Positions 20,116 to 64,000 are shown, numbered from the stretch's first letter. The stretch is DNA of 64,000 nt from an uncultured Chloroflexota bacterium (GCA_964496475.1 CAZBZS010000002.1:56967-120966); one strand, 5' to 3'. Numbers and translations are program-made. Notes: generated from the letters alone by a model not told the origin.

Positions 20116-21093
20116 TCACCCGTACATACTTCGGCTGGCCTCCGCCCGATAGTAATTGATGGTCTTCGACAAGCCGTCATCCAGAGAGGTCGTCGCTGTC
20201 CAGCCAACGAGATCTCGAATGCGGCTGAGGTCCGGAACCCGGCGCGGAATATCTTCATAGCTGGTGCCGAATACCGATTCGTGGCTCACAAACTCGATTT
20301 CGGATTCAAATCCGCCAAGGCGTTTGAGCGCATGGGCAATTTCTAGAACCGTGATCTCCCGATCGGTGCCAATGTTCAAAATTGTGTTCGTTGCCGCCGG
20401 GGACATGGCGCTCCGCACCATCCCCTCCACCGCGTCTTCGACATAGCAGAACGTGCGTGTCTGCCTACCGTCGCCGTGGACCTGGACCGGCAACCCGTTC
20501 AAGAATCGGTGAAGGAAGATCGGGATCACTCGTCCTGCCCCGAGCGTGTCGAGCCTAGGCCCGTATATGTTAAACAGGCGGAAGATGACGAATTCAAGAG
20601 CATTTCGCTGTCGATGCGCAAGGATAAGATGCTCGATCGCAGCCTTGGACGTGGCGTAACACCAACGATTGACTGTTGTTGGGCCGAGAACCCGGTCGTC
20701 ATCCTCTCGCCACGGGACCTTTGGATTTTTGCCATAAACCTCTGATGTGGAGGTGAATACGATCTTCTTGCCGTAGCGAGATGCTGCTTCAACCACCTGC
20801 AAGCCAGCGACCAGATCCATTTCCATCGTCCTTAAAGGATCCTCCACGTACACTCGGGGATCTGCTATAGCCGCCAGATGGTAAATCACATCGCAAGCGC
20901 GGATTTCACGATCCATGAGCAATTCATCGGTGATCGATCCCTGGAGAAATCTGAATTCAGCGTTGTCCATGAGGTGGTCGATCTTGACGCCATCGGACAG
21001 ATCCAGGGCTATTACGGAATCGCCCCGCTCGAGGTGAGATTCGCAGATGAAGGAGCCGACGAAGCCGGCTCCGCCAGTCACCAGGATTTTCAA
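20116..21093 (-). CDS. NAD-dependent epimerase/dehydratase, ArnA-decarboxylase-like (UDP-glucuronate decarboxylase family)
   Basis: 325 aa; MKILVTGGAGFVGS; TSTSEVYG...YATSK...IFRLFNIYGPR collinear with the ArnA C-terminal/UXS family. Confidence 0.8.
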   Translation of the reverse strand: MKILVTGGAGFVGSFICESHLERGDSVIALDLSDGVKIDHLMDNAEFRFLQGSITDELLMDREIRACDVIYHLAAIADPRVYVEDPLRTMEMDLVAGLQVVEAASRYGKKIVFTSTSEVYGKNPKVPWREDDDRVLGPTTVNRWCYATSKAAIEHLILAHRQRNALEFVIFRLFNIYGPRLDTLGAGRVIPIFLHRFLNGLPVQVHGDGRQTRTFCYVEDAVEGMVRSAMSPAATNTILNIGTDREITVLEIAHALKRLGGFESEIEFVSHESVFGTSYEDIPRRVPDLSRIRDLVGWTATTSLDDGLSKTINYYRAEASRSMYG

Positions 21094-22622
21094 TTCTGTT
21101 TATCCTTGTCCGGAACGATTGTGAGAAGGCAGAAATTGCCTGATCGCAGCTTCACCTGAATCCTATCGAGACCGAGTTCTTCCGGTCGCACATAGTTTTC
21201 ATTTATCAGCAAGTGATCGATGTCCCATCTGCTGAATATGTCGGTTATCGGCACCTGCAATACCGGGAAGAAATCATCATAGTGATGAAGGTGTCCGAAC
21301 GAACTATCTGTACTAAGAACTTTAGCCGTGGAAAAATGCAACGCCGTATCCGCGAGCGAAAGTGGAATGGTCATGAGCTTTGCAGGATGTGCTTGCGAAT
21401 CGAGCTTCCGCATGATCCGCAAGAGATCCGGCGTCACCGAGCGGTCGACATCGTGGGCCACGACCCGGTACTGCAGGAACAACGCCGGGGCGAGCCCGCC
21501 GAATAGCGCCAGGGCAATGAAGGCGACCGCGAGTGCGGTTCCCCACGCTGAATCGGCCGTGGACACCAGACCGGCGATGATCAGAGCGGTCGGAAAGACA
21601 CCGTACTCGCCGTACCGCTCACCCTCGCCAATGAATTCCAACGACTTCACCTGCCGGATAAGGATCCCGGTGCCCAGAAGACTCAATGACAGCACGAGGA
21701 AGAAGTTGAATTCACGTTGCCAAGTGACCGCATCGGCGATCACGAAGTCGAAGAACTCATTGACTGCGGCCAGGATCGCAAGAACGACAAACACATTGGC
21801 GCTGAAGACCGCCAGAAACGGGGCCTTGCGGAGGTAACGATAGATCCTGAAAACGGGGTCGGCACTCTGCTCAGCCTCCCGGGTGAGGCCCCTCACCTGG
21901 TGGGCAAAGCGATTGTGAATGTTTCCTCGCCACCAATTGAGCATGGCGAGGTGCCCCTTGAACACCTGCCAGTAGAGCCCGCCGGAGACAACTATCGCAA
22001 GCATCCAACTGCCGAGGAAGACGAGGGGGTAATAAGGCGTCAGGAAGAAAATGCCGAGCACTATTGTTGCTGCGGCGAGAGCCTGCAGGGCCATCCGGTG
22101 GGTGAGGAACAATACCGTGCCCGCAACCAGCGATGCCGGAAACCAGACCCAATCGGCCGATGCGGTGAACGCGAGGTTCGTGAGCATCAGCGTGGTAAAC
22201 ATCAGGGACGCGAGTGGCCTTGTCGTCAGGCTTGAGTTTGCCATCACGACAATCGGCGCCAGGATATAGCCTGCCTGGGCCGCCGACGATGCCCAGACGT
22301 TGCCAGTAAACGAATAGGCCACGACAAATACGAGGAACGAATGCGCGAAATCGACAATCGGACTCACCAACCACTGTGATCTCTCTAGTAATCTCTTCGG
22401 AAAGAGCGACAGTAGCCAGCGCATCAACGGCGGGTAGTCGGATGGTTCGGGAATCAGGTAGCGATCGAAGCTCGCGGTGGAATCGTGGCGTTTCCGACGG
22501 TAGTAATCGGCCATCGCCAGATGCCGCCAGGTGTCAACACCGAAATAGCGATTGCCGATTCGGGGCCAAATTTGCAAAAGGAAAGAAGCGGCGGACAAGG
22601 TCAGGCCGACCAGGTAGATCAA
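21090..22622 (-). CDS. Polytopic integral membrane protein, putative GT-C-type glycosyltransferase
   Basis: 510 aa, about 12 TM helices; ATGA overlap with the upstream decarboxylase; divergent neighbour is a partner-family paralog. Confidence 0.55.
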   Translation of the reverse strand: MIYLVGLTLSAASFLLQIWPRIGNRYFGVDTWRHLAMADYYRRKRHDSTASFDRYLIPEPSDYPPLMRWLLSLFPKRLLERSQWLVSPIVDFAHSFLVFVVAYSFTGNVWASSAAQAGYILAPIVVMANSSLTTRPLASLMFTTLMLTNLAFTASADWVWFPASLVAGTVLFLTHRMALQALAAATIVLGIFFLTPYYPLVFLGSWMLAIVVSGGLYWQVFKGHLAMLNWWRGNIHNRFAHQVRGLTREAEQSADPVFRIYRYLRKAPFLAVFSANVFVVLAILAAVNEFFDFVIADAVTWQREFNFFLVLSLSLLGTGILIRQVKSLEFIGEGERYGEYGVFPTALIIAGLVSTADSAWGTALAVAFIALALFGGLAPALFLQYRVVAHDVDRSVTPDLLRIMRKLDSQAHPAKLMTIPLSLADTALHFSTAKVLSTDSSFGHLHHYDDFFPVLQVPITDIFSRWDIDHLLINENYVRPEELGLDRIQVKLRSGNFCLLTIVPDKDKQN

Positions 22623-22706: not shown

Positions 22707-23513
22707 ATGTTAGCCCAGCCTCAGTTCGAAACGCACCACCGTCATCGCCAGCGTAATCCGAAGGTGAGTGTAGTAGATCGAATCGTTGCTAGACTTCCGG
22801 TTATCGCCAGCCTAGCGGCGATGCTCATCGTGGGCTCGCTGTTTCTGAGGCAGGAACGGATGCTGCCGGTGACGTTCGCCGAGGAGGAATATGCGTTCCC
22901 CTACGGTCCGCTGGCTGGTGGAGTGGGGCAGACCTTCACTGCCCCGGCACCGTATCTAAGCCAGGTGGCGGTGACAATCGATGCGCGGGGGATTGCCACG
23001 GCCGGCTTCCCGCTGAACATGAGAATCCGCGACGGTCGGAGCGAACTGGTTGCAGAGGCCCGTCTGGTAGTGAACCATGGGGGCCTCTCTGACCAGGCGA
23101 TCTCGTTTGGTCCGATTGCTGATTCGGAAGGTCGGGCATTTGAAGTTGAGATCCAGCCGGCGGAGGGCGCCGAAGGCGACGTATACCTGCCAATGCGAAC
23201 TGGATCGGGGCTTTCAGGAGAGGCCTTCCGGGACCAGGAGGGTAAGCATAGTGTCGATTGGTCCAGCAATTACCGGCTTCATCAAACGGTTCGGCCGCTC
23301 ACTTTCATCCGGGGCATCTTTACTGCGGACTCACTTACCGTGCTGGGCATGTTAACCGCGATATCACTTCTGACCTTCGCGTTGGCAGCCGCGTCACGTG
23401 GCGTCGGTAGAGTCCTTGGCTTAAAGGTGAATCTGACTGCCGGTGCCTTTTTTAGTGGCGCTCTGACGCTGACCTTGGGTTGGGTGGCGTTCGCCACATA
23501 CCCTTTGGTGTGA
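22707..23513 (+). CDS. Bitopic membrane protein, paralog A of the recurring GT-C partner family
   Basis: N-terminal TM, extracytoplasmic domain (FPYGPLAGGVGQTF...FEVEIQP...), C-terminal TM segments; shares the motif set with the ORFs at 39719, 42517, 52094 and 60596. Confidence 0.55.
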   Translation: MLAQPQFETHHRHRQRNPKVSVVDRIVARLPVIASLAAMLIVGSLFLRQERMLPVTFAEEEYAFPYGPLAGGVGQTFTAPAPYLSQVAVTIDARGIATAGFPLNMRIRDGRSELVAEARLVVNHGGLSDQAISFGPIADSEGRAFEVEIQPAEGAEGDVYLPMRTGSGLSGEAFRDQEGKHSVDWSSNYRLHQTVRPLTFIRGIFTADSLTVLGMLTAISLLTFALAAASRGVGRVLGLKVNLTAGAFFSGALTLTLGWVAFATYPLV

Positions 23514-23638: not shown

Positions 23639-24958
23639 CTACTCGGAGGCAGTCCCTTCCATGCGGCCTGCGGCGGGCCGGAGGACCAGTAGGTACGTTT
23701 CGGCAGCGAGATAGCCGGCGGTGACGGCCAGCGTGATGGTGAGGATCGTGGCTAAGTCTTGTACGGTTTCGTGCCAATTGAACATCGCGGTCAGCATAGC
23801 TGCGACGGCGACCAACATGAAACTCCACGGGCGCAGATTGCCGGCGCCGATGTTCAGATGTGCCAGGGCATAGCTCAGCGAAAGCAGTGTTCCGGCCACT
23901 ATGTAGATCGACAGCAGGGTTGTATCGAGATAGTACTGGTCTGGGAAGGCGATCGCGAAGACGTAGGTCGGGAAGATGAGCACCGTCAGGCCGACAACGG
24001 TCACGATGGCTCCGATCAGGCCAACGCTTACGAGCAGGCTGGGTACGATCGACTTGCCGGACGAAAACCGCCGGATCACGTGTGGCATTAGAACGATGGA
24101 AACGGGTGACGTGGCGAAGAAGAGAGTTCTCCCGATGAGGGCGACAGCAGAATAGTTGGCTGCTTGGGTTTCAGTGAAGTACGCCTTCACAAACAAAATG
24201 TCCGCGTTCAACACAATGGCCAGGGCGAATGCAATTCCCACCACGCGCAGCTGGTCGCGACCACCCAATTCGGGTCGAGTTTCTACCTGTTCCGATCCGC
24301 GTACTCGACGCGTGACGCGAAAGAGAAAGACGGCTCCGCCCATCACGGCCACGGCGGCTCCGACCGAGGAACCGGCTACGGCGCCAGCAGCCGCCCAACC
24401 CAGCAACACCATTCCGGCGCCGGCGCCCAGGCGCGAAGCGCTTTCGGCCACACTGATGATGCCCAGAAAAAGGAATGAACTTGTGCCCGCCAGCGACGCC
24501 TTGACGACAATCGAGATCAGCGACAGAACGATTGCCGATCCGACAACCAGGATGCTGGCGACCCCCTCGAATTGCAGGAGGTCGCCGATCCAGCCGCTCA
24601 ATACGCCGAGTACGACAGCGATGACCAATCCAGCGGTGCCCACGCGGGCCGCGGTCTGCGCAAACCAGCGCCAAAGTTGGTGACCACGACCCTGCACGAA
24701 CAGATCTCCGGAGACTTTGATGACGAGCGAATTGAGCGCCGCGCCCGGGACGCTGAGCAGGGCTAGGAGCGAGATCGCGGCGATCATCTCTGCCCATGCC
24801 CCCGGCGTAAGGAGCCTTGCCATTACGAACTGGAAAGCGAATCCCAGGACGTTGACGACCATCGATAGGCCGAACAAGGTCAAGTTATCGCGGAAGATGC
24901 CTGGCCGAACGGCTGCCCGAACCACCGTCGAGAGGCGCCAGCTGGCCGCAATGTTCAC
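23639..24958 (-). CDS. Polysaccharide biosynthesis protein (Wzx-like MOP flippase)
   Basis: About 12-14 TM helices; start moved to the GTG just after the upstream stop to avoid a 128-bp overlap. Confidence 0.7.
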   Translation of the reverse strand: MNIAASWRLSTVVRAAVRPGIFRDNLTLFGLSMVVNVLGFAFQFVMARLLTPGAWAEMIAAISLLALLSVPGAALNSLVIKVSGDLFVQGRGHQLWRWFAQTAARVGTAGLVIAVVLGVLSGWIGDLLQFEGVASILVVGSAIVLSLISIVVKASLAGTSSFLFLGIISVAESASRLGAGAGMVLLGWAAAGAVAGSSVGAAVAVMGGAVFLFRVTRRVRGSEQVETRPELGGRDQLRVVGIAFALAIVLNADILFVKAYFTETQAANYSAVALIGRTLFFATSPVSIVLMPHVIRRFSSGKSIVPSLLVSVGLIGAIVTVVGLTVLIFPTYVFAIAFPDQYYLDTTLLSIYIVAGTLLSLSYALAHLNIGAGNLRPWSFMLVAVAAMLTAMFNWHETVQDLATILTITLAVTAGYLAAETYLLVLRPAAGRMEGTASE

Positions 24959-24965
24959 CTGATTG

Positions 24966-26036
24966 CTAGACGCCTTCGTACTCCCGATACAGATCCCAGA
25001 AATAGCGCAACGACACCGACACCTTCGCAATTTGCATGAGATCTCGATCGGATACCCGGCGAATATCCCTCTGCACACGCCGCCGGGCCGCAATAGTGTC
25101 TGGCAGAGTGCGGAAGTTCCAGAAGATCCCGCTCAGAATTGCTCGGGCCTTCGAAGGGTTGCCGCGCAGAGCGTACACGGTCGCAATCGCGAGACACAGT
25201 CCCACATGAACCGGCACGACCTTTAGAGCCTCCAGAAGGCCGAAATTCTTCAGCATCGAATGAATGCGGTTTTTGAACGAGTGGTAACTGATCAGGTAAG
25301 AGTCAGAGTTCCTTGAAGTCCCTGCCAGCAGATGATGTACAAGGGCGTCGGGCACGAAGTAGATCTTTCTTCCCGACAGCCAAACTCGCCAACACAAATC
25401 AGTCTCCTCAAAGTAGGCGAAGTATTTTTCGTCAAACACGCCGACTTCCCGCAAAACCGAAGCCCGGAACATCATGCACGCACCCTTCGCCGAGAATATT
25501 GGGAACGGCGAATCAAGATTCTCGTCGCGCGCCAGATAGCCATCGTGGTACAACATGCCCGTCCAGGTCAGATAATCTCCGATCGAATCCAACCGCGACG
25601 GGTCCTTCATCCAGAGGATTTTTGGCTCGCATCCGCCCGCGTTCGGGTGGGCCTCCATGAAATCGACTAGCTCTGACAGAAAATTGGGTTCAACCGTGGT
25701 GTCCGAATTCAGAAACAGAATGTATTCGCCGGTCGCCTCTCGATAGGCCAACAAGTTGGCTCCTACAAACCCCAGATTCTCCGACTGCTTGAATAGACGC
25801 ACCTCGGAAAACTCTTCGCCTATCATCGTCGCGGAACCATCGGTCGAACCGTTATCCACACAGAGCACTTCGAAGCTCGGGTAGGCGACCTCACGCAGGG
25901 ATTGCAGGCAATCCCGGATTAACGATCGGGTGTTGTAGTTGACGATCAGAATCGAGACAAGTGGGTGCCCGATGAAGAGCGGCTCCTGGCTGCCGATGGC
26001 CGTGGGTGAGATACCGGCAGATTCTATCCCCGCCAC
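24966..26036 (-). CDS. Glycosyltransferase family 2
   Basis: VSILIVNYNTRSL...LCVDNGSTDGS; the ORF opens at 26105, 2 bp from the divergent asnB start, so the internal GTG at 26036 is the more likely start. Confidence 0.8.
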   Translation of the reverse strand: MAGIESAGISPTAIGSQEPLFIGHPLVSILIVNYNTRSLIRDCLQSLREVAYPSFEVLCVDNGSTDGSATMIGEEFSEVRLFKQSENLGFVGANLLAYREATGEYILFLNSDTTVEPNFLSELVDFMEAHPNAGGCEPKILWMKDPSRLDSIGDYLTWTGMLYHDGYLARDENLDSPFPIFSAKGACMMFRASVLREVGVFDEKYFAYFEETDLCWRVWLSGRKIYFVPDALVHHLLAGTSRNSDSYLISYHSFKNRIHSMLKNFGLLEALKVVPVHVGLCLAIATVYALRGNPSKARAILSGIFWNFRTLPDTIAARRRVQRDIRRVSDRDLMQIAKVSVSLRYFWDLYREYEGV

Positions 26037-26107
26037 GAGCCTGAGTACGAACCGTCGGCAATTCCCGACAATCACACACCACGGATGAAAATGAGGCGGG
26101 TACACGT

Positions 26108-28009
26108 TTGTGTGGAATAGTGGGAGTCCTGTCCGGGTCCCGGGGCGAGCCTCCCGATCCCGTGATTCTCGAGGCCATGAAGGCGAGGCTCGTCCATCGG
26201 GGCCCAGACGACGACGGCGGCTATCTGGATGACCACGTAGCTCTTGGAATGCGCCGTCTCAGCATCATCGACCTTGAGGCCGGGCAACAACCGGTCGCCA
26301 ACGAGGACCGCTCAATTCAGGTAGTTCTCAACGGAGAAATTTACAACTACCGCGACTTGACAGACCGCCTCTTGGCGATGGGCCATGTATTTCGCTCCAG
26401 TTCGGACACAGAAGTGCTGGTGCACGCCTACGAGCAATGGGGCGACGCATTTCTCGATAAGCTCAACGGGATGTTCGCATTTGCGCTGTGGGACGTTCGA
26501 CGCCGCCGGTTGATGTTGGCTCGCGATCGCGCCGGCATCAAGCCCCTGTACTACTCCCGGATTGGAGCAACCCTTGTGTTCGGCTCCGAACTCAAGGCCC
26601 TCCTCGTGCACCCGCTGGTTGAACGCGATCTCGACGCCGAGTCTCTCGGTCACTACCTGTCATTCGAATACGTCCCCACCCCCCACGCCATCTTTCGCGG
26701 AGTTCGGAAGGTCAGGCCCGGCCACTACCTCATCGCCGAACGAGAGTCGATCAACGAGGTCCGCTACTGGGATTTTGAGATTCAACGCAGCGAGTCCATC
26801 CATGTTGACGAGCCGCACCTTCATGCGCAGAAATTCGCCCGGGTTCTTCAAGACTCGGTGGCTGCGGAAATGGTAAGCGATGTTCCGGTGGGCGTTCTGC
26901 TCAGCGGGGGCCTGGATTCCAGCGCCGTTGCCGCCATGATGGCGAAGGTGGCCGATAGTCCAATCAAGAGTTTCTCAGTGGGTTTCGCCGAAGGTTCGTT
27001 CGATGAGAGCTCCCATGCCCGGCGGGTCTCCCGCCACCTGCAAACCAAGCACCACGAGATGGTGCTAACCCCGAAAATGCTTCTGGATCTGTTGCCCCGT
27101 CTGGCCGCCCATATCGACGAGCCCTTCGCCGACCCCTCCGTGATGCCCACCTATCTCGTCTCGAAATTCGCCAGGGAACATGTAAAGGTCGCGCTTGGCG
27201 GCGATGGCGGCGACGAAATGCTCGCCGGCTATTCCACTTTGCAGGCCCACCGCGCCGCCACCTTCTACAACCGCCTTCCCGCCCCATTCCGACACCGCGT
27301 CGTCGAGCCGTTGGTCAGGTCGCTACCCGTCTCCCACGCCGACTTTTCTCTGGACTTCAAGGCGAATCGGTTCATCCGGGGTTCAGGCGAGCTTCCCGCC
27401 CTGCAACATCAGATGTGGTTGGGATCGTTCTTCGGAAGTCAAAAGTTGCAAATTCTGTCTCGCGATTTCGTCGAGCGAATCGCCGCCGCTCCGGGCGGCG
27501 AACTAGTCCGGCGCACCGTTCAACCCTGCCTGGCCGGCAAACAGCTCAACCGGATCCTGTACCAGGATATGAAGCTGTATCTCGAGGGGGGGGTCCTCCC
27601 CAAAGTCGATCGTGCCAGCATGGCCGTCTCGCTGGAAACGCGAGTTCCATTGCTCAACCGGGATGTCATGGAGTTCATGGCCGACACCCCGCTCTCATTG
27701 AAACTGCGTGGCTTCACACGAAAATGGCTTCTGCGGGAGGCTATGGCCGGTCAACTTCCAGACGAAATCATCAGGCGGCCAAAAAAGGGGTTCGGCATCC
27801 CTGTCGCCCGTTGGCTGTCCCGCGACCTCCGCCAGATGACACAGGATTACCTGAGCCCCGTTCGGCTCGATCGCCAGGGTATCTTCAACCCCGCGGCTGT
27901 CTCCAGAATCCTTTCCGAACATCTGGAACGACGTCGAAACAATCACAAGATGCTCTGGACGCTTCTAATGTTTCAGCTCTGGTGGGAAAACTGGATGGAG
28001 CCGGCCTAG
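26108..28009 (+). CDS. asnB: Asparagine synthase (glutamine-hydrolysing) family amidotransferase
   Basis: 633 aa; TTG start giving M-CGIVGVL (catalytic Cys2); SGGLDSS PP-loop. Confidence 0.9.
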   Translation: MCGIVGVLSGSRGEPPDPVILEAMKARLVHRGPDDDGGYLDDHVALGMRRLSIIDLEAGQQPVANEDRSIQVVLNGEIYNYRDLTDRLLAMGHVFRSSSDTEVLVHAYEQWGDAFLDKLNGMFAFALWDVRRRRLMLARDRAGIKPLYYSRIGATLVFGSELKALLVHPLVERDLDAESLGHYLSFEYVPTPHAIFRGVRKVRPGHYLIAERESINEVRYWDFEIQRSESIHVDEPHLHAQKFARVLQDSVAAEMVSDVPVGVLLSGGLDSSAVAAMMAKVADSPIKSFSVGFAEGSFDESSHARRVSRHLQTKHHEMVLTPKMLLDLLPRLAAHIDEPFADPSVMPTYLVSKFAREHVKVALGGDGGDEMLAGYSTLQAHRAATFYNRLPAPFRHRVVEPLVRSLPVSHADFSLDFKANRFIRGSGELPALQHQMWLGSFFGSQKLQILSRDFVERIAAAPGGELVRRTVQPCLAGKQLNRILYQDMKLYLEGGVLPKVDRASMAVSLETRVPLLNRDVMEFMADTPLSLKLRGFTRKWLLREAMAGQLPDEIIRRPKKGFGIPVARWLSRDLRQMTQDYLSPVRLDRQGIFNPAAVSRILSEHLERRRNNHKMLWTLLMFQLWWENWMEPA

Positions 28010-28866
28010 CTTCTTCGCCCCCGCGAAGCCTCGGCGATCAGCCCCTGACCGAAGATCAGCAGTCCGAAGAAGAGCCCCAGCAGGCCGACGATCAGGAGAC
28101 TGCCGCCGCCGGTAGCCGCCCATGTCACGATCAGCGCGAGTGCCAGCAGCCAGGCGAATGCCGCCAACAATGAAAAGATTTTGATGGGATTGTGGCGGAC
28201 TGCTGCCTGAACGATCACCTGCATCATTCTCAGCGCATCCCTCAACGGCCTGATCTTTGACTGGCCGGACCGAGATCGGTACTCACTTCGAACGAAGTGC
28301 ACACCCAACCCATCTCCCATCATCGCCAGCGTCAAGCCCGTGCTGAATGAAAAACCCGTGCTCAGGATGTCGAAGTACCGCAACACCAAATCCCGCCGGA
28401 AAACGCGCAATCCTGAATTCACATCCGGGATGTGGCGACCCGTCACAAACGAAGCCATCAGCACCAGAAGCCAGCGTGCCATCCGCCGCAACGGCCCTCC
28501 ATGGAAGTGTGGTCCGGTCCTGGCCGCCACCACCATGTCGTAGTGCTCGGCGATCTCTAAGAGCCGTGCCGCCGTGTCCGCCGGATACGTATTGTCAGCG
28601 TCAGTTATCAGTATCCATTTGTGACGCGCCGCCTGAATCCCGCGCCGTAGCGAGTGCCCATAACCCATGTTCGACGGCGGACCAATCACCTGTGCTCCGG
28701 CCTCCTCGGCTATCACCCGCGTGCCGTCCGTCGATCCATCGTCCACCACAATAATCTCGAAATCGCTCGGCAACGTCTGTAGCATCACCTCGTATTCTGT
28801 TACGACCGTGCCGACCGCCCCCGCCTCGTTATACGCGGGAATTACTACCGAGACTGACGGTGCCAT
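28006..28866 (-). CDS. GT2 polyprenyl-phosphate sugar synthase (DPM synthase/GtrB-like) with C-terminal TM helices
   Basis: SVVIPAYNEAGAV...IVVDDGSTDGT, plus two C-terminal TM helices; start placed at an internal ATG 5 nt after the upstream stop. Confidence 0.8.
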   Translation of the reverse strand: MAPSVSVVIPAYNEAGAVGTVVTEYEVMLQTLPSDFEIIVVDDGSTDGTRVIAEEAGAQVIGPPSNMGYGHSLRRGIQAARHKWILITDADNTYPADTAARLLEIAEHYDMVVAARTGPHFHGGPLRRMARWLLVLMASFVTGRHIPDVNSGLRVFRRDLVLRYFDILSTGFSFSTGLTLAMMGDGLGVHFVRSEYRSRSGQSKIRPLRDALRMMQVIVQAAVRHNPIKIFSLLAAFAWLLALALIVTWAATGGGSLLIVGLLGLFFGLLIFGQGLIAEASRGRRS

Positions 28867-28871
28867 CAAAC

Positions 28872-31795: not shown

Positions 31796-32033
31796 CCAGC
31801 CTTGGATTGGGAATTTTCGACCGGGACTCGGCGGGTTGGTCGAGGCATTTATTATTTCGTAGATTTGAGTTGTCCTCGTACTGTTGTCGAGGCGACTCTC
31901 TCACCCGGGGCGGATGTCGGAACCGATTCAGTCCGAAGATCCACCTCCTCCGAAATCCGCTGGTCGCGAAATCGGCGGAGACGTTACCGCCAGCCACATT
32001 CCATCTCGAGTCCAATACCCAGGAGCAGCCAGC

Positions 32034-36105: not shown

Positions 36106-37164
<1,059 letters not shown>

Positions 37165-44295: not shown

Positions 44296-44399
44296 TGCTC
44301 TGACCTCCAGGAGATTGCCGGCGGCGAGCTGATCTTTAACCGACGCTGCAAGAACATGATTGTCAACAGACTCTCCCTCGATGATCCTTTTGCCAAATT

Positions 44400-49889: not shown

Positions 49890-50170
49890 GACTAGTAGAC
49901 CCTCGCCATGACGCTCGAGAAAATGCTGGCCCGATTCCCGTTTCAAACCCAATCCGCGTACTCCTTGGAGACGGTATACGGGGGAACCGCTTCTCGCCCG
50001 ATCGGTAAGACGCGCCGAGCCTACTACAAGCCGATCACCCCTCCGATCTTCCTGTCCACCATCCCTGCCACCATCTTTACCGGCCGTCAGCGACGCTTCA
50101 ATCCGTTGGCGCCATCCCCGGGGCACTAATATCTTCATTTCAGTTTCCAGCTTCGACGGGACACCCACCC

Positions 50171-54899: not shown

Positions 54900-55177
54900 T
54901 TACGCGAGGCCCTCGACTTTCCATTCCGACGGACCACAACATCGCGCGTCCATCCGAAGTCTAGGCCGATCTTGTTGGTGGCGAACGATCCCCGAGCAGA
55001 CACCCGACCAGATAGGCTCATCGCACCGTCGCCAATACCGGGCCCCATCCGTTTGCGATGTCTTGCACAGTCCTCCGCGCGACCAGGCCGCCGTTAAACT
55101 GTCACCAGCAACAGAGTTCACCCGGCGGCGCGCCCAGGGTTCGGAGCTCAGCCTTTCCAGTTCGACAAGGGGAAAAA

Positions 55178-57023: not shown

Positions 57024-60000
57024 GTGGTACCCCAACGCCGCTGGATCGCATTCGGCAGGCGATTCGTGCCGTGCCCGGCCCTGGCGGTCGTTCTGCTCGC
57101 TGGGTTCGCCCCGTTCTTCTGGGTGAAATTCGGCTATGTCGCAAAAGCCGAAGATTTCATCCTTCCCATGACCCTGGAGCAATGGTACGAGTTCTTCAGC
57201 ACCTGGCAAACCCGCGTCGGTTTCGGTTCGAGCCCCGATGATCGTCTGCCTGCGGTGTTCTTTCTCTTCTGGCCCGCCCTGTTCCGTGCCGTCGGTGCAT
57301 CCATCGAGCTTGCCCAGCGGCTCCAGTTCGTACTTTGGTTCTCGGCTATGGGGCTCTCCATGTACGTGCTCATGCGATACCTCACCAGTTCCCGAATAGC
57401 GTGGGCTGCCGCCAGCCTCGTTTACATGTTCAATTTCTATCAGGAACCAGTCTGGCAGGGCGTCAACATTGCCAACCTCAGCGCATTAATCGCGCTACCA
57501 CTTGCTCTGGCAGTGACCATTTCATTCACCCGGAATGATCGATTGCTGACCAGTGCGGCCCTTATAGCTTTGATTACCGTGGTCGGATCTGGTGTCGGAG
57601 CCAACCCGCCCATGGCACTGATTGCGATGATCCCCGTCCCGCTTTACATGATCATGTACATGATCCACCGATTCGCGACCGGCCGGGCCCTGCAAGCACG
57701 CCGAATGCTCATGATGGCGTCAATCGCCCTGGTTCTTATCGTGGCAGTCAACGCCTACTGGCTCGTACCGCAGTCCGTCGGACTCATTACCGGCGGACCG
57801 GGACAAAATTTTATCGGCCGCACGAAGGACGTTGGACTTTCCCAACTCACTCACCTCTCCAGCTTCACCACTCCGCTCAATGTCTGGCGGCTGCAGGGCG
57901 CCTGGGTCTGGTACGGCGGCTTCGAAGGCATCCCGTATGTTCCCTACGCGGAGGGGTACTTCAAGAATCCGCTACTTATCATCGGGAGTTTTCTGCTTCC
58001 AGTGGCTGCCCTTGGCGGTTTCGCCCTCCGGAGAGATCGCAAATTTCTGTATTTTGGCTTCGTGGCATTCCTCGGGCTAGTCCTGGGCAGTGGCACCAAC
58101 GGTCCGTTCGGTCCGATCTTCGCTTTGCTGTGGAAAAATGTGCCTCTTTTCTGGGTCCTGCGGAGCCCCTGGTACAAGGCCACCTCACTGACAATCCTTG
58201 GCTTTGCGCCATTGGCCGGCCTCTTCGTCGCCGCGACCACGGCATCCATAGGCCAATTCCTGGCCAGCTCGCGTTTCGGTCTCCGCTACGGGCGGACCGC
58301 CCGGACCCTGTCAGCGAGCTTCCCTTGTCTCTTGGCGGTGATCTATCTCCTGTACGCAATGCCCATCGTCCGGGGGCACTTCATGATCCAGCGCCCGCTG
58401 GACTCACCGCTGGGCACCCTTCAAGTCGCTATTCCGGACTACCTCGTCGAGGCAGCGAACTGGATGAATGAGCATCCGGGCGATTACCGCGTGCTCTCGT
58501 TCCCCCCTGCGCTGCGGCTTACGACCGATTGGGGCTATACCGGCTACATCCCACCGATCGGCGAGCTAACTACCGAGCCCTTCATCAATCTGGTCGAACC
58601 GTCTGAGATGCAAGCCTACCTGTATGCCCAGACGCTGGGCTCCCGGAATGGTCCCGTTGCCCGGGTCGCCGGGAGATCTGGCATCGGTTATTTCCTTCAC
58701 CAGCGCGATGTCGTCCGACCCGAGTTCCCGGACTATTTCGACGATTACATTGATACGGTCCTGGAATGGCAAGGGATCGATGAGGTGGCCCGTTTTGGTT
58801 CGCTGGTTTTTTACGCTGTCCCCGATGTTCGAGACCTCGTCTGGGGTTCGCCGCTTACAGTCCTCACGCTGACCGGGCTCGCGTCTCTCAGTCCGCTCAC
58901 GAACAGCCTGACTGACCCTGACCCTGCCATCGTCATGATCGACCCTTCCGGGGCAGATTCCGTTACCGCACAGTTTGCCAAAGATATACCTCATACGAGC
59001 ATCCTGCGCCTTGGGAATGGTTTCAACGAGTTTCTTGCGTTCAAGACCCATGAGAGCAGCCTGACTATTTCGCCGGGGTCCAAGTCCGTGGACATGGAGA
59101 TACCGGTTGACGGAACGTACGAGATTTGGGAGCTAGTCGGGAGGACGACCTCCTCCGCGCTTCCCGGGTTCGACTTTGTCAACCGTGAACTCCTGCGGCA
59201 TGATGTGTTTCCCACCCCCAAAGGCCCCAGGGCTCCGTCCATCGACGGCAAACCGCTAACCCTCTACCCGTTCGCCGACGTATTCGAGCTTCCCGATTCT
59301 TGGGTCTACTGGGGTAGTTTTGAAGGGGTTCGGGGTAGCAGCACACTCAAATTAGGATTCCCATCGCCGGCTCCTGACGGGCTTCGGCTCGTCCTTGTGC
59401 GCTCAGCCGACCGGATCGGCCTGGACAATAAGATGCTATTGGACAACGAATCTTCTTTTCAGTTTCCTGACGGCGCTGAGCTCGGTCTCCTCCCTGGACG
59501 ACGATTCCCAGGTCACATGTACCTTTTCGGCCGTGTCACTCCCAAAGATATTGTCGATCTCCCGGTCGAGATGCAGGTAAAGATCGCGATCAAAGATAAC
59601 TGGGACGAGCCCGAGATCGGAGTAGAGGGACTAAGCACGCGGCGCCTTCGAGCAGTTCAGAAATCCGCACCCCACCTGGAGATTTCCAACCTATCAGGGT
59701 CTGTACAAACAATCGCCATGGTTCTTCGGCCGACCCCGATTGGGACCATTCCTAGGTCTCTTTGGATTAACGTGGGAGGTTCCTTTCATTCGATCTTCCT
59801 CCTTCAGCCGTCGGTACCTCGGGAAGTATTGGTCCTCTCAATCGACGTTGAACCTGGGACAACCTATGTGAATCTCTACTCCCCTGAGGGAGACTCGCTT
59901 CTGCCGGACGGGAGCTTTGCCAGTTTCGAATACGAAATGCCGATCGTGATCGGGACGATCAAACGTGAGCGATCCTTCAACGTTGTACAGGGCGGCAACT

Positions 60001-60599
60001 ATCGTCTTGGGGTCCATCTGACGTACCAGACGTCTACCGGCCAGGGCCCTAACGCTCTGCTGAACGGTCTGACTATCGACGGACACGACTTGCTCCCCGT
60101 CCTCGCCAGTGACGATCAGTATCGGATCGCCACGACCACCATAAATCTCTCGGCCGGGATGCACACGATAATCATCGACCAGAAAATGGGTGCATCCATT
60201 CCCGTGACACTGGTTCCCGTCCGGCCGGAAGTCAACGACGATCAGGGCCTGGTCATCCGGCATGAATCCATTTCCCCCAGCCATGTCCGCGCGTCCGTGC
60301 GAACCGAGGATCCGATCATGCTCGTGCTCAACGAACTGTTCGACAGCCGTTGGGAAGCCACTGTCAATGGGGTCCCAGTTGGCCCCCATTTGCGAGTGAA
60401 TGGGTTTGCCAACGGCTTCTTTGTCAACCAAGTTGGAGAGTACGAAATCGAGTTCAAATTCCGCCTACAGCCTCTCGCTGACGCCACCAGAAATCTCTCC
60501 GCCGCTTGCATCGCCGCCCTCGCATCGCTATTACTAATGAGTCTTGCACGCGACCGGATGGCCCGTAAGACCCGTCCCCCAGAAGACACCGCGTCTTGA
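57024..60599 (+). CDS. Very large membrane protein: N-terminal polytopic GT-C-like domain plus ~700-aa extracytoplasmic region and C-terminal TM anchor (AftD/DUF3367-like architecture)
   Basis: 1191 aa; about 14 TM helices in the first 430 aa; a final TM helix near the C-terminus; paralogous to the partial gene at 61701. Confidence 0.65.
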   Translation: MVPQRRWIAFGRRFVPCPALAVVLLAGFAPFFWVKFGYVAKAEDFILPMTLEQWYEFFSTWQTRVGFGSSPDDRLPAVFFLFWPALFRAVGASIELAQRLQFVLWFSAMGLSMYVLMRYLTSSRIAWAAASLVYMFNFYQEPVWQGVNIANLSALIALPLALAVTISFTRNDRLLTSAALIALITVVGSGVGANPPMALIAMIPVPLYMIMYMIHRFATGRALQARRMLMMASIALVLIVAVNAYWLVPQSVGLITGGPGQNFIGRTKDVGLSQLTHLSSFTTPLNVWRLQGAWVWYGGFEGIPYVPYAEGYFKNPLLIIGSFLLPVAALGGFALRRDRKFLYFGFVAFLGLVLGSGTNGPFGPIFALLWKNVPLFWVLRSPWYKATSLTILGFAPLAGLFVAATTASIGQFLASSRFGLRYGRTARTLSASFPCLLAVIYLLYAMPIVRGHFMIQRPLDSPLGTLQVAIPDYLVEAANWMNEHPGDYRVLSFPPALRLTTDWGYTGYIPPIGELTTEPFINLVEPSEMQAYLYAQTLGSRNGPVARVAGRSGIGYFLHQRDVVRPEFPDYFDDYIDTVLEWQGIDEVARFGSLVFYAVPDVRDLVWGSPLTVLTLTGLASLSPLTNSLTDPDPAIVMIDPSGADSVTAQFAKDIPHTSILRLGNGFNEFLAFKTHESSLTISPGSKSVDMEIPVDGTYEIWELVGRTTSSALPGFDFVNRELLRHDVFPTPKGPRAPSIDGKPLTLYPFADVFELPDSWVYWGSFEGVRGSSTLKLGFPSPAPDGLRLVLVRSADRIGLDNKMLLDNESSFQFPDGAELGLLPGRRFPGHMYLFGRVTPKDIVDLPVEMQVKIAIKDNWDEPEIGVEGLSTRRLRAVQKSAPHLEISNLSGSVQTIAMVLRPTPIGTIPRSLWINVGGSFHSIFLLQPSVPREVLVLSIDVEPGTTYVNLYSPEGDSLLPDGSFASFEYEMPIVIGTIKRERSFNVVQGGNYRLGVHLTYQTSTGQGPNALLNGLTIDGHDLLPVLASDDQYRIATTTINLSAGMHTIIIDQKMGASIPVTLVPVRPEVNDDQGLVIRHESISPSHVRASVRTEDPIMLVLNELFDSRWEATVNGVPVGPHLRVNGFANGFFVNQVGEYEIEFKFRLQPLADATRNLSAACIAALASLLLMSLARDRMARKTRPPEDTAS

Positions 60600-61693
60600 C
60601 CGGGCGCCGTTGGGTATTCACCCTGGCAGCTTGGGCCGGTGTAGCTCTTCTCGCCGCAATCGCAGTTGCGAGTCAACTCACCATTCGTCGCAACGTACAA
60701 CTTTGGGAGATCGATCAGCCCTATCAAGAAGTGGTGTACCTGGAGCCCAGCGGCAGCGTGAGCCAGCGTATCGACACGCAAATTGGGGATGTAGCCGGTT
60801 TTGTAGCCCTCGTGCGACCTTCTGATTCTCGGCGGCCAGCGTCAGTAAACATGCGAATTCGGCGGCCGGGGGCCGACCGCCCAATCGTTCGACAGTCAAA
60901 TCAGCTCACCAACAGCCCTAACCATCAGAGACTGGCCGCGATTCCTCTGCCGCCGATCCCTTCCAGCGACGGAAGGTCCTTTGAATTCGAGATAGAGGTT
61001 GCCGCCGATTCTCCTGGAGGCCTCGTCATCCTTGGCAGCATCGATCTCGATGAGATCCCACCGCGCCAGCTAACCATCAACGGTGCCCAAACGTTACCCA
61101 ACCTAAGAGCGCTCGTTTCACCGATAATATCCGTGAGCACCTGGTCGCTGGTCAAGGGGACGTTCGGTTTCAACGCCACGCGCTCGGCACTGTACTTGCT
61201 GGCGATCGCCGTCTTGAGCGCTACCGGGATCGCATTCGGCCGACTCGCCCTCCGGTGCGTGAGCGGAGCCTCCACCCGCGCCCTCCCGTTTATCGTTCTC
61301 CTCCCTATCGCGGTGGCCCTGATCCTGGCCGCAGCAACTGCCAACTTCACCGAGGAATTCGGGAGGGACTATCGTTTGGCCCTGACAGAAGCCTACTGGA
61401 ACACCGGCCTTGCCTATTCTTGGCTTCTCAGCGTTTCAATCGTCGCCGCCTGGCTGCTCGTCATGTGGGCGCAGCGGCGCCCTTCCCCCGACCCCACATG
61501 GCGAGCGCGGCTGCGCCCTGCGAATCTGTGGCAGCCGCTGGTTGCTGTCACCATGGCCGCCCTGGCGTTCTCAGTCGGATTTGCCCTGCTCGGATTGGAC
61601 GGTGTAGGAAACGCGACGGGCGCTCTAGCCGAGATCCTGTTTGGCCTAGCTCTGATCCTCGGCATAGGCGGCTCGGTTCGGTCTTCGGAATAG
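60596..61693 (+). CDS. Bitopic/polytopic membrane protein, partner-family paralog F
   Basis: TTG start overlaps the upstream stop (TTGA); N-terminal TM, domain with SFEFEIEVAADSPGGLVILGS, then about 5 C-terminal TM helices. Confidence 0.55.
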   Translation: MTGRRWVFTLAAWAGVALLAAIAVASQLTIRRNVQLWEIDQPYQEVVYLEPSGSVSQRIDTQIGDVAGFVALVRPSDSRRPASVNMRIRRPGADRPIVRQSNQLTNSPNHQRLAAIPLPPIPSSDGRSFEFEIEVAADSPGGLVILGSIDLDEIPPRQLTINGAQTLPNLRALVSPIISVSTWSLVKGTFGFNATRSALYLLAIAVLSATGIAFGRLALRCVSGASTRALPFIVLLPIAVALILAAATANFTEEFGRDYRLALTEAYWNTGLAYSWLLSVSIVAAWLLVMWAQRRPSPDPTWRARLRPANLWQPLVAVTMAALAFSVGFALLGLDGVGNATGALAEILFGLALILGIGGSVRSSE

Positions 61694-61700: not shown

Positions 61701-64000
61701 GTGATTCTTCTTTCTCGACTCCAGAAACTCCTGAATTCACCAGGGCGCTCCGGTCTCGCGGTCCCGATCCTGATCATCGCGCTCGGATTCATGCCTGCCA
61801 TCTGGGCCCCTTGGGACGTCGTTCTCATATCCGAGGACCTCGCCCTTCCTCGCACACCCCAGCAGTTCTTCCTCACTCTCCATTCCTGGAACCCGATCCT
61901 CAACACCGGCACCCCTTACAACGTCGCCCATACCGCCATCCTCACCTTTGCCCAGCAAGCCGGGTTACAGGAGGTCGGGCTCAGCCCGGCCGTCACCCAA
62001 CGCCTGATCATGATCGTGTGGATGACGTTGTCCGGCCTGGGCATGTACGTACTGGTCCGAGCACTGTTCGCGTCCCGACTGTCCCGCAGTCAATGGCAGA
62101 CCGCCGCCGCCGTCGCGGCAAGCTTCTACATGTTCAATCTCTACATCGAGCACGCCTGGCGCGGGTTCAACATCGGCGTCCTCACGGCCCAGACCACCCT
62201 GCCGCTGCTGCTGACCCTGCTCTACCTTGGGTTCAAGGGCCGTATATCCGCTACCCGCCTGGCCCTCTACACCGTTCCCGTCGCGCTGTGGTCCTCGGGC
62301 GTTGGCGTAAACCCGCCGCTGATGCTGATCTTTGTCGCCACGATAGTCGCCTTCCCTCTGGCCTACCTGATGTTTTCCCACAGCGGCCGTTTGTCCGCCC
62401 GCCTGTTCCCGGTGCTGCGCACGGTGGGAATTCTGAGCGCCGTGTCGATCCTGACCAACGCGTTCTGGATTATCCCTTTCGTCGGCCAGATCCAGGCGAC
62501 CACGACCGGCGAACTGACCACCTCAAGCGAGTTGGCGTCCAACTGGCTCGGCGGCATCTCCGCCAATGCGTCCTTCACCAAGGTGCTGCGATTTCAGGGC
62601 GACTGGACCTGGTACCAGGGTTGGAACGAGCCCTACCGTCCCTATGCCAGCTCCTATGAGGACTCCACCGGCCTGGCGATGCTCTCCTGGGTGGCCCCGG
62701 CCCTGGTCATAATCGGCTTGGCGGGACCGAAGCGACGGCTCCGCCTCTTCTTCGGCGTCATCACCGCCCTCGCCCTGCTCCTCAGCATGGGCACCCACCC
62801 GCCGATGGACCGAATCTATCTGTGGCTGGTTGGGAACGCACCCCTCTTCTGGATCATCCGCAGCCCCTGGTTCAAATTCGCCCTGGTCACCAGCCTCGGA
62901 TTCGCCGTTCTCGGCGGACTTGGCGCGGCGAACCTTGCCGGCTGGCTGCGCCAGGTCTCCCGCGGATCCCGAGTCGGCCGGCAAGTTGGCAGTAGAACCA
63001 CCGCCATTGTTGTGATCGGTGCCGTCGCCATCAACCTCATCTATGCCTACCCGGTGACCACCGGCCAGATGTTCCCGGCGGCAGAGACCCTTCCTCCCAA
63101 CCAGATGCGGATCCCCGACTACATCGCCGACGCCTCCTCGTGGTTTGACGAGAACGTGGGCGACGGGCGGGTCGCGGCCCTGCCCGAGACCACCGTCTGG
63201 GCCGACCAGAGCGGCTTCGTCAGCTTTTCTCCGGTACTGACCCAGATTGGCACAGCAGCAATCGTCTACCCTTTCCAGACCGTCCACGGCTCCCTGGTGT
63301 CGGCCACGAACGGGATGCTGAACGACATCGCCTACGAGGCCCTCTACCGGGCATCCACACGACGCGCCGACGAAATCCTCCGGTTGATGAGCGTCCGCTA
63401 CTTGAACCACGAGACCGGCATCAAATACTGGCTGTACGCTGGCGATGTCGACTCCGCCGACTGGGTTCGGCTCCGGCTGGAGAAGCAGCTCGGCATCGAG
63501 CCGGTCGCGACATTCGGCGCCTGGGAGGTCTACGCCGTTGATGACCCTTTGCCCGAGTTCTATCTGGCCCCGGGGCTGTCCATTGTCGCCGGTGGCGTAG
63601 AGGCCCTGCCGACGATGGTCGGGATGGACCTGCTCTCCACCCCGGCGATTCTGTTCTCGGATCAGCAAACTCCCGAGGGCCTGTCCCGGGCTTTGGACTC
63701 GCCCCTGCTCAGGGATATTCTGTTCTTCGCCAGCGGGCCCGAAGAATTGGCGCTCGACCTCATACCGGCCCGCCATCGCCACCCAGTACCGCGGAGCGGC
63801 CTCCCGGTAGAGTTCACCGTCGACGAAACCGCCGAGTACCGAATCTGGCTGCGATCCCCCGATAGGACCCGCTTTCCCTCGGGTGACCTCGCCGTAGACG
63901 GACAGCCGCTCGATCTCAGTTCCAGCCCGGCCCCATCGACGCCATTCTGGATACCGCTCGGCGTCCATCGGCTCGCCACCGGACCTCACCTCCTCACCGG
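61701..64000 (+). CDS. Partial (3'-truncated by the window end) paralog of the 1191-aa GT-C-like membrane protein
   Basis: Frame open from GTG 61701 to the window end (>766 codons, checked codon by codon); EDLALPRTPQQFF...LSGLGMYVLVRAL and APLFWIIRSPWFKFALVTSLGFA align with EDFILPMTLEQWY...SAMGLSMYVLMRYL and VPLFWVLRSPWYKATSLTILGFA of the gene at 57024; absent from the ORF track because it has no stop in the window. Confidence 0.65.
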   Translation, partial: MILLSRLQKLLNSPGRSGLAVPILIIALGFMPAIWAPWDVVLISEDLALPRTPQQFFLTLHSWNPILNTGTPYNVAHTAILTFAQQAGLQEVGLSPAVTQRLIMIVWMTLSGLGMYVLVRALFASRLSRSQWQTAAAVAASFYMFNLYIEHAWRGFNIGVLTAQTTLPLLLTLLYLGFKGRISATRLALYTVPVALWSSGVGVNPPLMLIFVATIVAFPLAYLMFSHSGRLSARLFPVLRTVGILSAVSILTNAFWIIPFVGQIQATTTGELTTSSELASNWLGGISANASFTKVLRFQGDWTWYQGWNEPYRPYASSYEDSTGLAMLSWVAPALVIIGLAGPKRRLRLFFGVITALALLLSMGTHPPMDRIYLWLVGNAPLFWIIRSPWFKFALVTSLGFAVLGGLGAANLAGWLRQVSRGSRVGRQVGSRTTAIVVIGAVAINLIYAYPVTTGQMFPAAETLPPNQMRIPDYIADASSWFDENVGDGRVAALPETTVWADQSGFVSFSPVLTQIGTAAIVYPFQTVHGSLVSATNGMLNDIAYEALYRASTRRADEILRLMSVRYLNHETGIKYWLYAGDVDSADWVRLRLEKQLGIEPVATFGAWEVYAVDDPLPEFYLAPGLSIVAGGVEALPTMVGMDLLSTPAILFSDQQTPEGLSRALDSPLLRDILFFASGPEELALDLIPARHRHPVPRSGLPVEFTVDETAEYRIWLRSPDRTRFPSGDLAVDGQPLDLSSSPAPSTPFWIPLGVHRLATGPHLLT

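Follow-up and report, generated by a model that had tools for sequence, protein, structure and literature searches.

We analyzed a stretch of 64,000 nt from an uncultured Chloroflexota bacterium (GCA_964496475.1, CAZBZS010000002.1:56967-120966; hereafter the window), in which a glycan cluster spans from 20.1 kb to the window end (>44 kb), and we focus on its putative GT-C-type glycosyltransferases and on a superfamily of small genes that accompany them. An earlier note on this DNA had described the region as devoted to glycan assembly; each of its coordinates corresponds to a real open reading frame (ORF), and 28 of the 29 genes from position 20116 onward fit envelope-glycan assembly, the exception being the gene for the elongation factor SelB. 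We refer to genes by their lowest coordinate. Eight encode large proteins, all polytopic as the note had claimed, with 7–13 predicted transmembrane (TM) helices; BLAST groups them into a family termed here family A (37729, 40515, and 52818; 32–46% identity), an AftD-like pair (57024 and 61701), and the singletons 21090, 44985, and 48615. Six small genes (39719, 42517, 52094, 22707, 47774, and 60596) form one superfamily, termed here the partners. Window proteins are matched exactly in Mediterranean water-column metagenome assemblies (SRR5007147, PRJNA352798, scaffold HARO18-2_1106), and all 20 genome loci with relatives of the most distinctive window protein belong to Chloroflexota metagenome-assembled genomes (MAGs). 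Related loci are labeled L001–L031, with L002 denoting scaffold HARO18-2_1106.

Family A comprises 37729..39738 (plus strand, 669 residues, 46% identical to 40515), 40515..42524 (plus strand, 669 residues), and 52818..54899 (minus strand, 677–693 residues, 32% identity to 40515 along the entire sequence). Relatives are rare: nine came from a word-indexed search across 5.8 billion proteins, and 94 cluster representatives, mostly 640–690 residues long, from an exhaustive profile search of 1.84 billion representatives at E ≤1e-3. Family A has no sequence match in the PDB, and NCBIfam holds no match for any of the large membrane proteins or partners. We calculated an AlphaFold2 model of 40515 from a 10-sequence alignment (pLDDT 77, pTM 0.84). 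A Foldseek search with this model returned GT-C enzymes for all ten best matches (probability 0.97–1.00). The top structural match of family A is ArnT, from which it differs by additional helices at the N-terminus and by a C-terminal domain that may be of the AglB type. The predicted fold places family A in the GT-C superfamily.

Loop sides were assigned on the model helices from their lysine and arginine (K/R) content, following the positive-inside rule. Short arginine-rich loops alternate with long loops in the 40515 model, and the K/R-poor side holds every conserved motif (H126-E127-N128, W144-P-P-x-D148-P-Y, E313, D461, and R470) as well as the C-terminal domain. We presume this side of the modeled protein to be extracytoplasmic, as expected for a GT-C active site. 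Glu-127, a candidate for the catalytic acidic residue of the first long extracytoplasmic loop, follows helix 95–122 on the K/R-poor side and is invariant in the 10 close members of the family. The donor of family A may be a polyprenyl-phosphate-linked sugar, to judge by the genomic context, in which the same cluster encodes ArnC-like and dolichol-phosphate mannose synthase (DPMS)-like GT2 enzymes.

Two family assignments were tried for these paralogs and set aside. DUF2298 (PF10060), an uncharacterised membrane-protein family of Chloroflexota and Archaea, resembles family A in size (∼650–800 residues) and is matched by 7/50 distant family A relatives (best E 1.5e-10). The three window paralogs, in contrast, do not match it even at E 0.1 and have no NCBIfam match either, and we do not count them as members. 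A ‘YYY’ motif associated with a DUF2298-related TIGRFAM is absent from 50/50 family A members. DUF2298 itself has no assigned function, and the literature mentions that we found are in passing only. Membership in the STT3/AglB/PglB oligosaccharyltransferases was likewise rejected, as the WWD[YWN]G motif occurs in none of the eight large proteins; the nearest feature is a W-E-G tripeptide in two family A paralogs, which the family as a whole does not conserve.

Each family A gene is followed by a partner gene that overlaps its stop codon: P1 (39719..40471, plus strand, 250 residues) overlaps 37729 by 20 nt, P2 (42517..43245, plus strand, 242 residues) overlaps 40515 by 8 nt, and P3 (52094..52831, minus strand, 245 residues) overlaps 52818 by 14 nt. 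P1, P2, and P3 are mutually 30–43% identical. Two further partner-superfamily genes accompany other large proteins: 47774..48634 (minus strand) lies immediately 3′ of the PMT-like gene 48615, an adjacency kept in L005, L007, and L008, and 60596..61693 (plus strand, 365 residues), whose product has additional TM helices at its C-terminus, begins 4 nt before the end of 57024. In all, five partner genes overlap the stop codon of an upstream GT-C gene by 4–20 nt, and the GT-Cs concerned come from three families (A, PMT-like, and AftD-like). The sixth gene, 22707..23513 (plus strand), is divergent from 21090 and has the same TM-β-TM architecture (TM helices at residues 22–49 and 204–230).

An AlphaFold2 model of P2 (pLDDT 78, pTM 0.72) starts with a TM helix, continues with a β sandwich (residues 26–175) and an amphipathic helix, and ends in two TM helices. 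In fold comparisons, its matches with low root mean square deviation were CBM35, CBM36, CBM6, and BT0996-C, and the modeled β domain shows the β-jelly roll of the carbohydrate-binding module (CBM) families CBM35, CBM6, and CBM36. We could not assign any partner to these families by sequence, as none has a Pfam or NCBIfam match. For the superfamily as a whole we predict one TM helix, an extracytoplasmic CBM35/6-like jelly roll, and then at least two TM helices. An alignment of 22707, 47774, 60596, the 47774 orthologs, and a distant 243-residue example matched the P family over the whole β domain (hhalign 94.5%, E 8e-8). This alignment was hand-picked on shared architecture, so that the score supports homology of the group and less so of each member; taken singly, 22707 scores 56%, and 47774 gives a negative result (2%). 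With the six small proteins in one superfamily, a single partner superfamily would serve GT-C genes of three families.

About 20 Chloroflexota loci share the family A–partner (A–P) pair. In the related loci, a P gene lies directly 3′ of A at 24 family A genes; none was detected in L009, and two additional family A genes run off the end of their contig. A family A member of only 23% identity is followed, with a 4-nt overlap, by a 243-residue gene of the same TM-β-TM layout, to which the hidden Markov model of the P family is blind. Pairwise identities within family A rise and fall with those of the matching partners (r = 0.94, Mantel 0/5000), also among the three paralogous pairs of the genome, and we conclude that the A–P pair duplicated and diverged as a unit. 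Paralog 3 (52818) represents an ortholog group that is found alone in distant Chloroflexota: in ten distant MAGs the 52818-type A–P pair stands by itself among amino-acid transport and metabolic genes, which defines it as an autonomous two-gene unit.

The family A gene of a complete Chloroflexota chromosome (OZ253587.1, L021 9932–11986) is broken into three successive ORFs next to an intact partner, which reflects either a pseudogene or a fault of the assembly. Among the more distant relatives of family A, those in L027 (1251–5853) are tandem copies followed by a GT2 gene, and those in L029 (331–4382) have GT2 and methyltransferase genes on both sides; no adjacent partner was identified at these two loci, so that not every member of the wider family A comes with a partner.

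The arrangement of the partner, with terminal TM helices around an extracytoplasmic domain, mimics the topology of polysaccharide co-polymerases (PCP/Wzz), and its most conserved motifs (GPVS..V..GQ and QDL.YQLLRRQ) adjoin the membrane, as expected for a protein–protein interface. These features would suit a structural or regulatory accessory, either a chain-length ruler or scaffold of the PCP type or a chaperone that stabilizes the GT-C. PCP periplasmic domains, however, are helical, whereas the partner is predicted to be a jelly-roll sandwich nearest to CBM35, CBM36, CBM6, and BT0996-C. A second argument against an accessory, which we regard as unlikely, comes from GT-C enzymes with fused CBMs of documented acceptor-binding role, namely EmbC, AftD, and GT136 (PMC11127046, section 10; PMC3044687). 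The C-terminal domain of EmbC is a fused lectin-like CBM (PMC3044687), and in the GT136 pentofuranose system of Citrobacter a CBM helps the GT136 enzyme ORF12 to bind its acceptor (Kelly et al. 2024, PMC11127046). Given these precedents, a role of the partner as an acceptor-binding subunit is a natural reading.

Profile comparisons connect further large proteins to family A. The 925-residue protein 44985..47762 (plus strand) has ∼13 TM helices, an N-terminal module of the family A type, and a soluble C-terminal region of ∼400 residues. Its N-terminal part aligns with the family A module of four helices and an acidic loop (hhalign 92%, E 7e-7, 209 columns), which brings D132-E-E of 44985 near E127 of family A. 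A gap of ∼690 bp (44296–44984) lies upstream of this gene; in relatives it contains only a 73–102-residue ORF without family (L001 9953–10174, L005 13928–14236) and no Rfam match. The AftD-like protein 57024..60599 (plus strand, 1191 residues) consists of an N-terminal TM domain with E43-D44 after TM1, a large soluble region, and a C-terminal TM anchor. Its paralog 61701..64000 (plus strand, 30% identical to 57024) is cut by the window end; the full-length product in the second assembly (L002) has 1161 residues. An alignment of the AftD-like proteins matches the last TM helices and the soluble domain of family A (hhalign 97%, E 7e-11), with its invariant K385 falling on family A R470. These profile links indicate that 44985, 57024, and 61701 are homologous to the fold-verified GT-C family.

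Assignment of the two proteins to AftD itself fails at the curated threshold despite the similar overall architecture: 57024 reaches 22.9 bits with Pfam GT-C_AftD (PF11847), for which the gathering score is 26, and neither 61701, its 1161-residue full-length form, nor a 1025-residue paralog found in L002 matches this model. The AftD-like proteins have no sequence match to the PDB entry of AftD (6wbx). Sequence searches of the PDB with single proteins and profiles gave nothing meaningful for family A, 44985, 21090, 57024, or the AftD-like alignment; the search with 57024 returned an Ika8 match over 60 residues of the soluble region only. Extended soluble regions form the C-terminal parts of 44985, 61701, and the 1025-residue paralog. 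We rejected the idea that the C-terminal regions of 44985 and the AftD-like proteins are fused partners (hhalign <1%).

The only other large protein with a Pfam match besides 57024 is 48615..50168 (minus strand), a PMT/ArnT-type GT-C of probably 445 residues with a start near 49952. It passes the threshold of Pfam PMT (PF02366; 32 bits versus a gathering score of 22.7) and carries PDEENHF after its first TM helix. No MIR domain was detected in 48615, which assigns it to the short bacterial PMT type. A metagenome scan with the PMT-like alignment found five close relatives only.

The eighth large protein, 21090..22622 (minus strand, 510 residues), belongs to an unnamed cross-phylum family and is a GT-C candidate by context only. 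Its 68 homologs are spread across Chloroflexota, Omnitrophota, and Nitrospinaceae, always in a glycan or sugar-cluster context, and share an invariant G28-x-D30-x-W32 just after TM1. The family has no PDB match, no NCBIfam match, and no Pfam match among 27 members. A short-chain dehydrogenase/reductase (SDR) gene directly follows 21090 in the window and its homolog in L030 (7001–8545), where the homolog lies beside an AftD-like GT-C gene and a B12-radical-SAM gene; in L031 (7001–8503) SDR genes are close by, and the homolog sits among ArnA/ArnB-like amino-sugar genes. We consider 21090 a reasonable, although unproven, GT-C candidate. The earlier count of at least eight GT-C-like enzymes is backed for seven of the eight large proteins, by fold, by Pfam PMT, or by profile–profile links.

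Six of the eight large proteins lack a Pfam, NCBIfam, or PDB sequence match, and they could on that account be transporters or permeases and not glycosyltransferases. We ran the check for MFS/RND-type homology that the earlier note had raised, and the fold search with the family A model points squarely to GT-C: transporter folds (MFS, TRAP, APC, and ClC) reach only a probability of ≤0.2 and a TM-score of ≤0.15, the first of them appearing at 0.16 and 0.11. Since profile comparison ties 44985, 57024, and 61701 to family A and 48615 belongs to PMT, we reject the transporter reading for seven of the eight proteins, 21090 being excepted, and regard it overall as very improbable.

The STT3/AglB resemblance of family A and the PMT match of 48615 raise another alternative, in which these enzymes glycosylate an S-layer or other surface protein as oligosaccharyl- and O-mannosyltransferases and the partner presents a protein acceptor. 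The lack of the WWD[YWN]G motif in the large proteins and of a detectable MIR domain in 48615 argues against this, and the partner resembles carbohydrate-binding modules and not peptide binders. Moreover, the many AftD-like paralogs point to elongation of a polysaccharide. We judge protein glycosylation to be improbable as the function of this cluster.

The cluster also encodes enzymes that would supply lipid-linked sugars. Six GT2 genes had been claimed; Pfam finds five in the window (24966, 28006, 28872, 29849, and 35276), and the sixth lies beyond it. The protein 28006..29058 (minus strand, true start probably near 28860) has a Pfam GT2 domain and two C-terminal TM helices at residues 290–345. 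Among PDB entries it matches ArnC best, along its full length (residues 2–277, E 5.6e-14), and then DPMS and GtrB, and its domain structure and closest relatives class it as an ArnC/GtrB/DPMS-like polyprenyl-phosphate sugar synthase. The small GT2 35276..36037 (minus strand, Pfam GT2, called as 223 residues in relatives) has an archaeal DPMS as closest solved relative (PDB 5mlz, E 1.1e-14). Both had been described as polyprenyl-phosphate-sugar synthases with C-terminal TM helices, which holds for 28006; for 35276 the nearest solved structure agrees, whereas no TM helix is predicted. Such helices are present instead on 28872..29999 (minus strand), a GT2 of the Glyco_tranf_2_3 type by Pfam. The two remaining GT2 enzymes are 24966..26105 (minus strand, Pfam Glycos_transf_2, E 1.8e-27) and the soluble 29849..30526 (minus strand, by Pfam).

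Two genes had been read as Wzx-like flippases, and we retain them as probable MOP/Wzx-like candidates: 23639..25093 (minus strand, ∼13 TM helices, true start probably near 24889) and 33883..35241 (minus strand, ∼11 TM helices), which are paralogs of 26% identity. Pfam Polysacc_synt is matched in 4/6 members of their family (best E 3.7e-6), below the gathering score; 33883 itself reaches 18.5 bits (E 0.0015) versus a gathering score of 28.2. The candidates have no NCBIfam match, and a PDB search with the flippase alignment returned nothing meaningful.

The three nucleotide-sugar enzymes named previously are borne out. The gene 30845..31795 (plus strand) encodes a UDP-glucuronate decarboxylase (UXS), with human UXS1 matched at E 2e-91 and ∼170 bits ahead of the next family, and 36163..37164 (plus strand) a GDP-mannose 4,6-dehydratase (GMD; TIGR01472, 424.6 bits versus a 415-bit cut-off). 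The third, 20116..21093 (minus strand), overlaps 21090 by 4 nt and encodes an SDR (Pfam Epimerase/GDP_Man_Dehyd) that resembles the ArnA C-terminal domain and UDP-4-keto-pentose/UDP-xylose synthases; it is a probable UDP-glucuronate decarboxylase, its best NCBIfam matches being PRK11908 (210 bits) and ArnA (187 bits), both below their equivalog cut-offs. A RidA/YjgF-like protein of 153 residues (37205..37666, plus strand, coordinates transferred from L001), a called gene with PF14588/PF01042 in L001 and L005, is kept between GMD and the first family A gene in the window and in both of these loci. It is an unusual companion of GMD and may act on a sugar intermediate of reactive keto or enamine character.

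Decoration of the product is suggested by four genes. An AsnB-type glutamine amidotransferase (26108..28009, plus strand; Pfam Asn_synthase, E 1e-102) passes TIGR01536 in NCBIfam, its best match being an XrtA/PEP-CTERM amidotransferase model below that model's cut-off; it probably amidates a sugar carboxylate. A B12-binding radical S-adenosylmethionine (SAM) enzyme (31884..33743, plus strand) is identified by Pfam and NCBIfam and is HpnJ-like at low score. A GFO/IDH/MocA sugar oxidoreductase (43255..44295, minus strand) is likewise recognized by both databases, and a NodU/CmcH-type carbamoyltransferase (55058..57016, plus strand) has the Pfam domains Carbam_trans_N/C and is NodU-like in NCBIfam.

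The cluster continues past the 3′ edge of the window, as had been proposed. In L002 the region beyond the edge (14706–21098) encodes the third AftD-like paralog (1025 residues), a methyltransferase, and a GtrB-like GT2 that ends in two TM helices, as well as an 842-residue protein on the minus strand that shares with the AftD-like proteins a C-terminal ‘...Y..(D/V)W.A...’ pattern and a TM anchor. These genes add at least 10 kb, and the cluster therefore measures at least 54 kb. Its start at 20116 is somewhat arbitrary: among possible decoration genes upstream of 20 kb, those for a methyltransferase (17278) and a GNAT protein (18772) lie just before it and one for a sugar epimerase (12985) further away, while ordinary metabolic genes (for GH127, a sulfatase, alcohol dehydrogenases, serine hydroxymethyltransferase, and TrkA) fill this upstream region. 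At the left edge of the window (306–3695) the GH127 β-L-arabinofuranosidase gene adjoins the sulfatase gene, so that polysaccharide-degrading functions and UXS- and ArnA-like pentose enzymes occur in one organism. We also noted a 444-residue protein (11547–12881, minus strand) in which a nitroreductase domain is fused to a SAM-methyltransferase domain.

Synteny had been named as a check on the cluster, and comparison with relatives (L005, L007, L008, L012, and L013) shows that gene order and content are kept over the whole 20–64 kb at 64–90% protein identity. No tRNA gene or Rfam match was found in the window, and GC content is uniform (0.56–0.64) with no break at 20 kb. As synteny is kept and neither tRNA genes, Rfam matches, nor a compositional break are seen, we reject a mobile genomic island in favor of a conserved gene cluster. 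We consider it likely that this conserved cluster lies on the chromosome of a free-living marine member of the Chloroflexota and serves to build and decorate at least one cell-envelope glycan at the outer surface of the cytoplasmic membrane. The gene for SelB, the selenocysteine-specific elongation factor (50171–52054, plus strand), lies between the PMT-like gene and an A–P pair and keeps this position in L005, L007, and L015. No SelA, SelD, or tRNA-Sec gene occurs in the window, and SelB is plainly unrelated to glycan assembly.

The pathway interpretation of the earlier note, from nucleotide sugars through polyprenyl-phosphate sugars and flipping to GT-C transfer outside the membrane, is supported by our analysis, and we can propose the following scheme. 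The gene content, folds, pairing, co-divergence, and positive-inside topology on which it is built come directly from the analyses above. In the cytoplasm, UXS (30845) and the ArnA-like SDR (20116) would form UDP-xylose or UDP-4-keto-pentose, and GMD (36163) GDP-4-keto-6-deoxymannose. The ArnC/GtrB/DPMS-type GT2 enzymes (28006, 35276, and one more encoded shortly beyond the window end) would load single sugars onto polyprenyl phosphate, while the other GT2 enzymes (24966, 28872, and 29849) may build a lipid-linked core, and the MOP-like proteins 23639 and 33883 would flip the lipid-linked species. Outside the cell, at least seven and probably eight GT-C enzymes of the window, with two or three more encoded downstream, would transfer the sugars to the growing glycan, which the amidotransferase, B12-radical-SAM enzyme, carbamoyltransferase, and oxidoreductase would then modify.

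Five of these GT-Cs, from three families, each appear translationally coupled to a small partner gene. The partner would form a 1:1 complex with its GT-C and bind or position the acceptor glycan, the task carried out by the fused CBMs of EmbC, AftD, and GT136. We infer the donors, the acceptor, complex formation, and glycan binding. In our view the cluster probably comprises several polyprenyl-phosphate-sugar-dependent modules whose GT-Cs use a detached, membrane-tethered acceptor-binding subunit. A bolder version, in which GT-C enzymes of at least three unrelated families depend on membrane-tethered CBM-like proteins as obligate subunits that co-evolve with them and ∼11 GT-C genes build a complex heteropolysaccharide envelope in mycobacterial style, we put forward tentatively, at somewhat less than even confidence.

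Several observations weigh against this explanation. Neither 44985, 61701, nor the 1025-residue paralog has a partner gene, and some distant family A members adjoin a GT2 gene instead of a partner. Glu-127 of family A is the majority and not an invariant residue in the 50-member alignment. The protein 21090 aligns weakly with family A (hhalign 20%, over the same C-terminal region) and at 2% with the AftD-like alignment. The flippase assignment of 23639 and 33883 is weak, as it rests on sub-threshold Pfam matches, and no GtrA-type small flippase is present in the cluster. Finally, the location of SelB within the cluster speaks against a single integrated pathway, as does the autonomy of the A–P pair.

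The last point bears on a further alternative, in which the region is a neighborhood of independent glycosylation modules (GT-C/partner operons, a Gtr-like side-chain module, and a polysaccharide core) that act on different acceptors and lie together only through shared donors. Besides the 52818-type pair that stands alone among unrelated genes and the conserved mid-cluster position of SelB, the distribution of the genes over both strands, in at least 10 transcription units, favors such an arrangement. It is opposed by the order and content of the whole 20–64 kb, which are kept down to ∼64% protein identity, and by the presence of only two or three polyprenyl-phosphate synthases for at least eight GT-Cs, which implies shared donors. 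We regard independent modules as a real possibility, falling a little short of an even chance, that is compatible at the level of mechanism with our preferred explanation of several modules with detached acceptor-binding subunits; the view of one island serving one pathway is probably too simple.

The proposed logic is that of known systems, and comparison with them bears out the earlier claim that the gene set matches none exactly. The GtrA/GtrB/GtrC systems of Shigella and Salmonella phages and the GT136 systems likewise combine a synthase, a flippase, and an extracytoplasmic GT-C. They have one GT-C gene, whereas here there are 8–11 from at least four families; the flippase candidates here are MOP-like and not of the GtrA or MATE type, and the CBM-like domain is a separate membrane-anchored polypeptide, in contrast to the C-terminal fusion in GT136. 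The Arn pathway (ArnA/ArnC/ArnT), which provides lipid A with 4-amino-4-deoxy-L-arabinose, shares with the cluster an enzyme like the ArnA C-terminal domain (20116), an ArnC-like synthase (28006), and ArnT as top structural match of family A. The window, however, contains no ArnB aminotransferase, formyltransferase, or deformylase, and family A differs from ArnT in its added N-terminal helices and putatively AglB-like C-terminal domain. Lipid A synthesis is not known from Chloroflexota.

Mycobacterial synthesis of arabinogalactan and lipoarabinomannan employs EmbA/B/C and AftA–D with decaprenyl-phosphate arabinose (DPA) as donor. Here, by contrast, 57024 remains below the Pfam AftD threshold and lacks a PDB AftD match, no UbiA/DprE-type genes of the DPA pathway occur in the window, and the host belongs to the Chloroflexota and is not an actinobacterium. 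Like the fused CBMs of EmbC, AftD, and GT136 ORF12, the partner is predicted to be an extracytoplasmic β-sandwich or jelly roll tied to a GT-C. Acceptor binding is experimental in those enzymes and predicted by analogy here, where the module has its own gene, TM helices at both ends, and no sequence match to CBM families. We found no description of a stand-alone GT-C partner protein in the literature that we consulted.

Taken together, the pathway logic is known from the Gtr, Arn, and mycobacterial arabinan systems, the underlying chemistry is as expected, and nothing established is overturned, while the split GT-C/CBM two-protein design appears undescribed. For enzymology, our analysis provides a fold assignment for the rare and unannotated 669-residue family A and a profile link that joins this family to the AftD-like group and the 925-residue protein. 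If our explanation is true, acceptor-binding CBMs of GT-C enzymes can be separate membrane-anchored subunits, which could help explain how ‘orphan’ GT-Cs find their acceptors, and a GT-C gene followed by an overlapping TM-jelly-roll-TM gene would offer a handle for annotating similar systems. For the organism, the many GT-Cs in a conserved cluster imply a major, elaborately decorated surface polymer in uncultured marine Chloroflexota. Such a polymer would shape the interactions of these bacteria with phages and grazers, as well as the carbon that they export.

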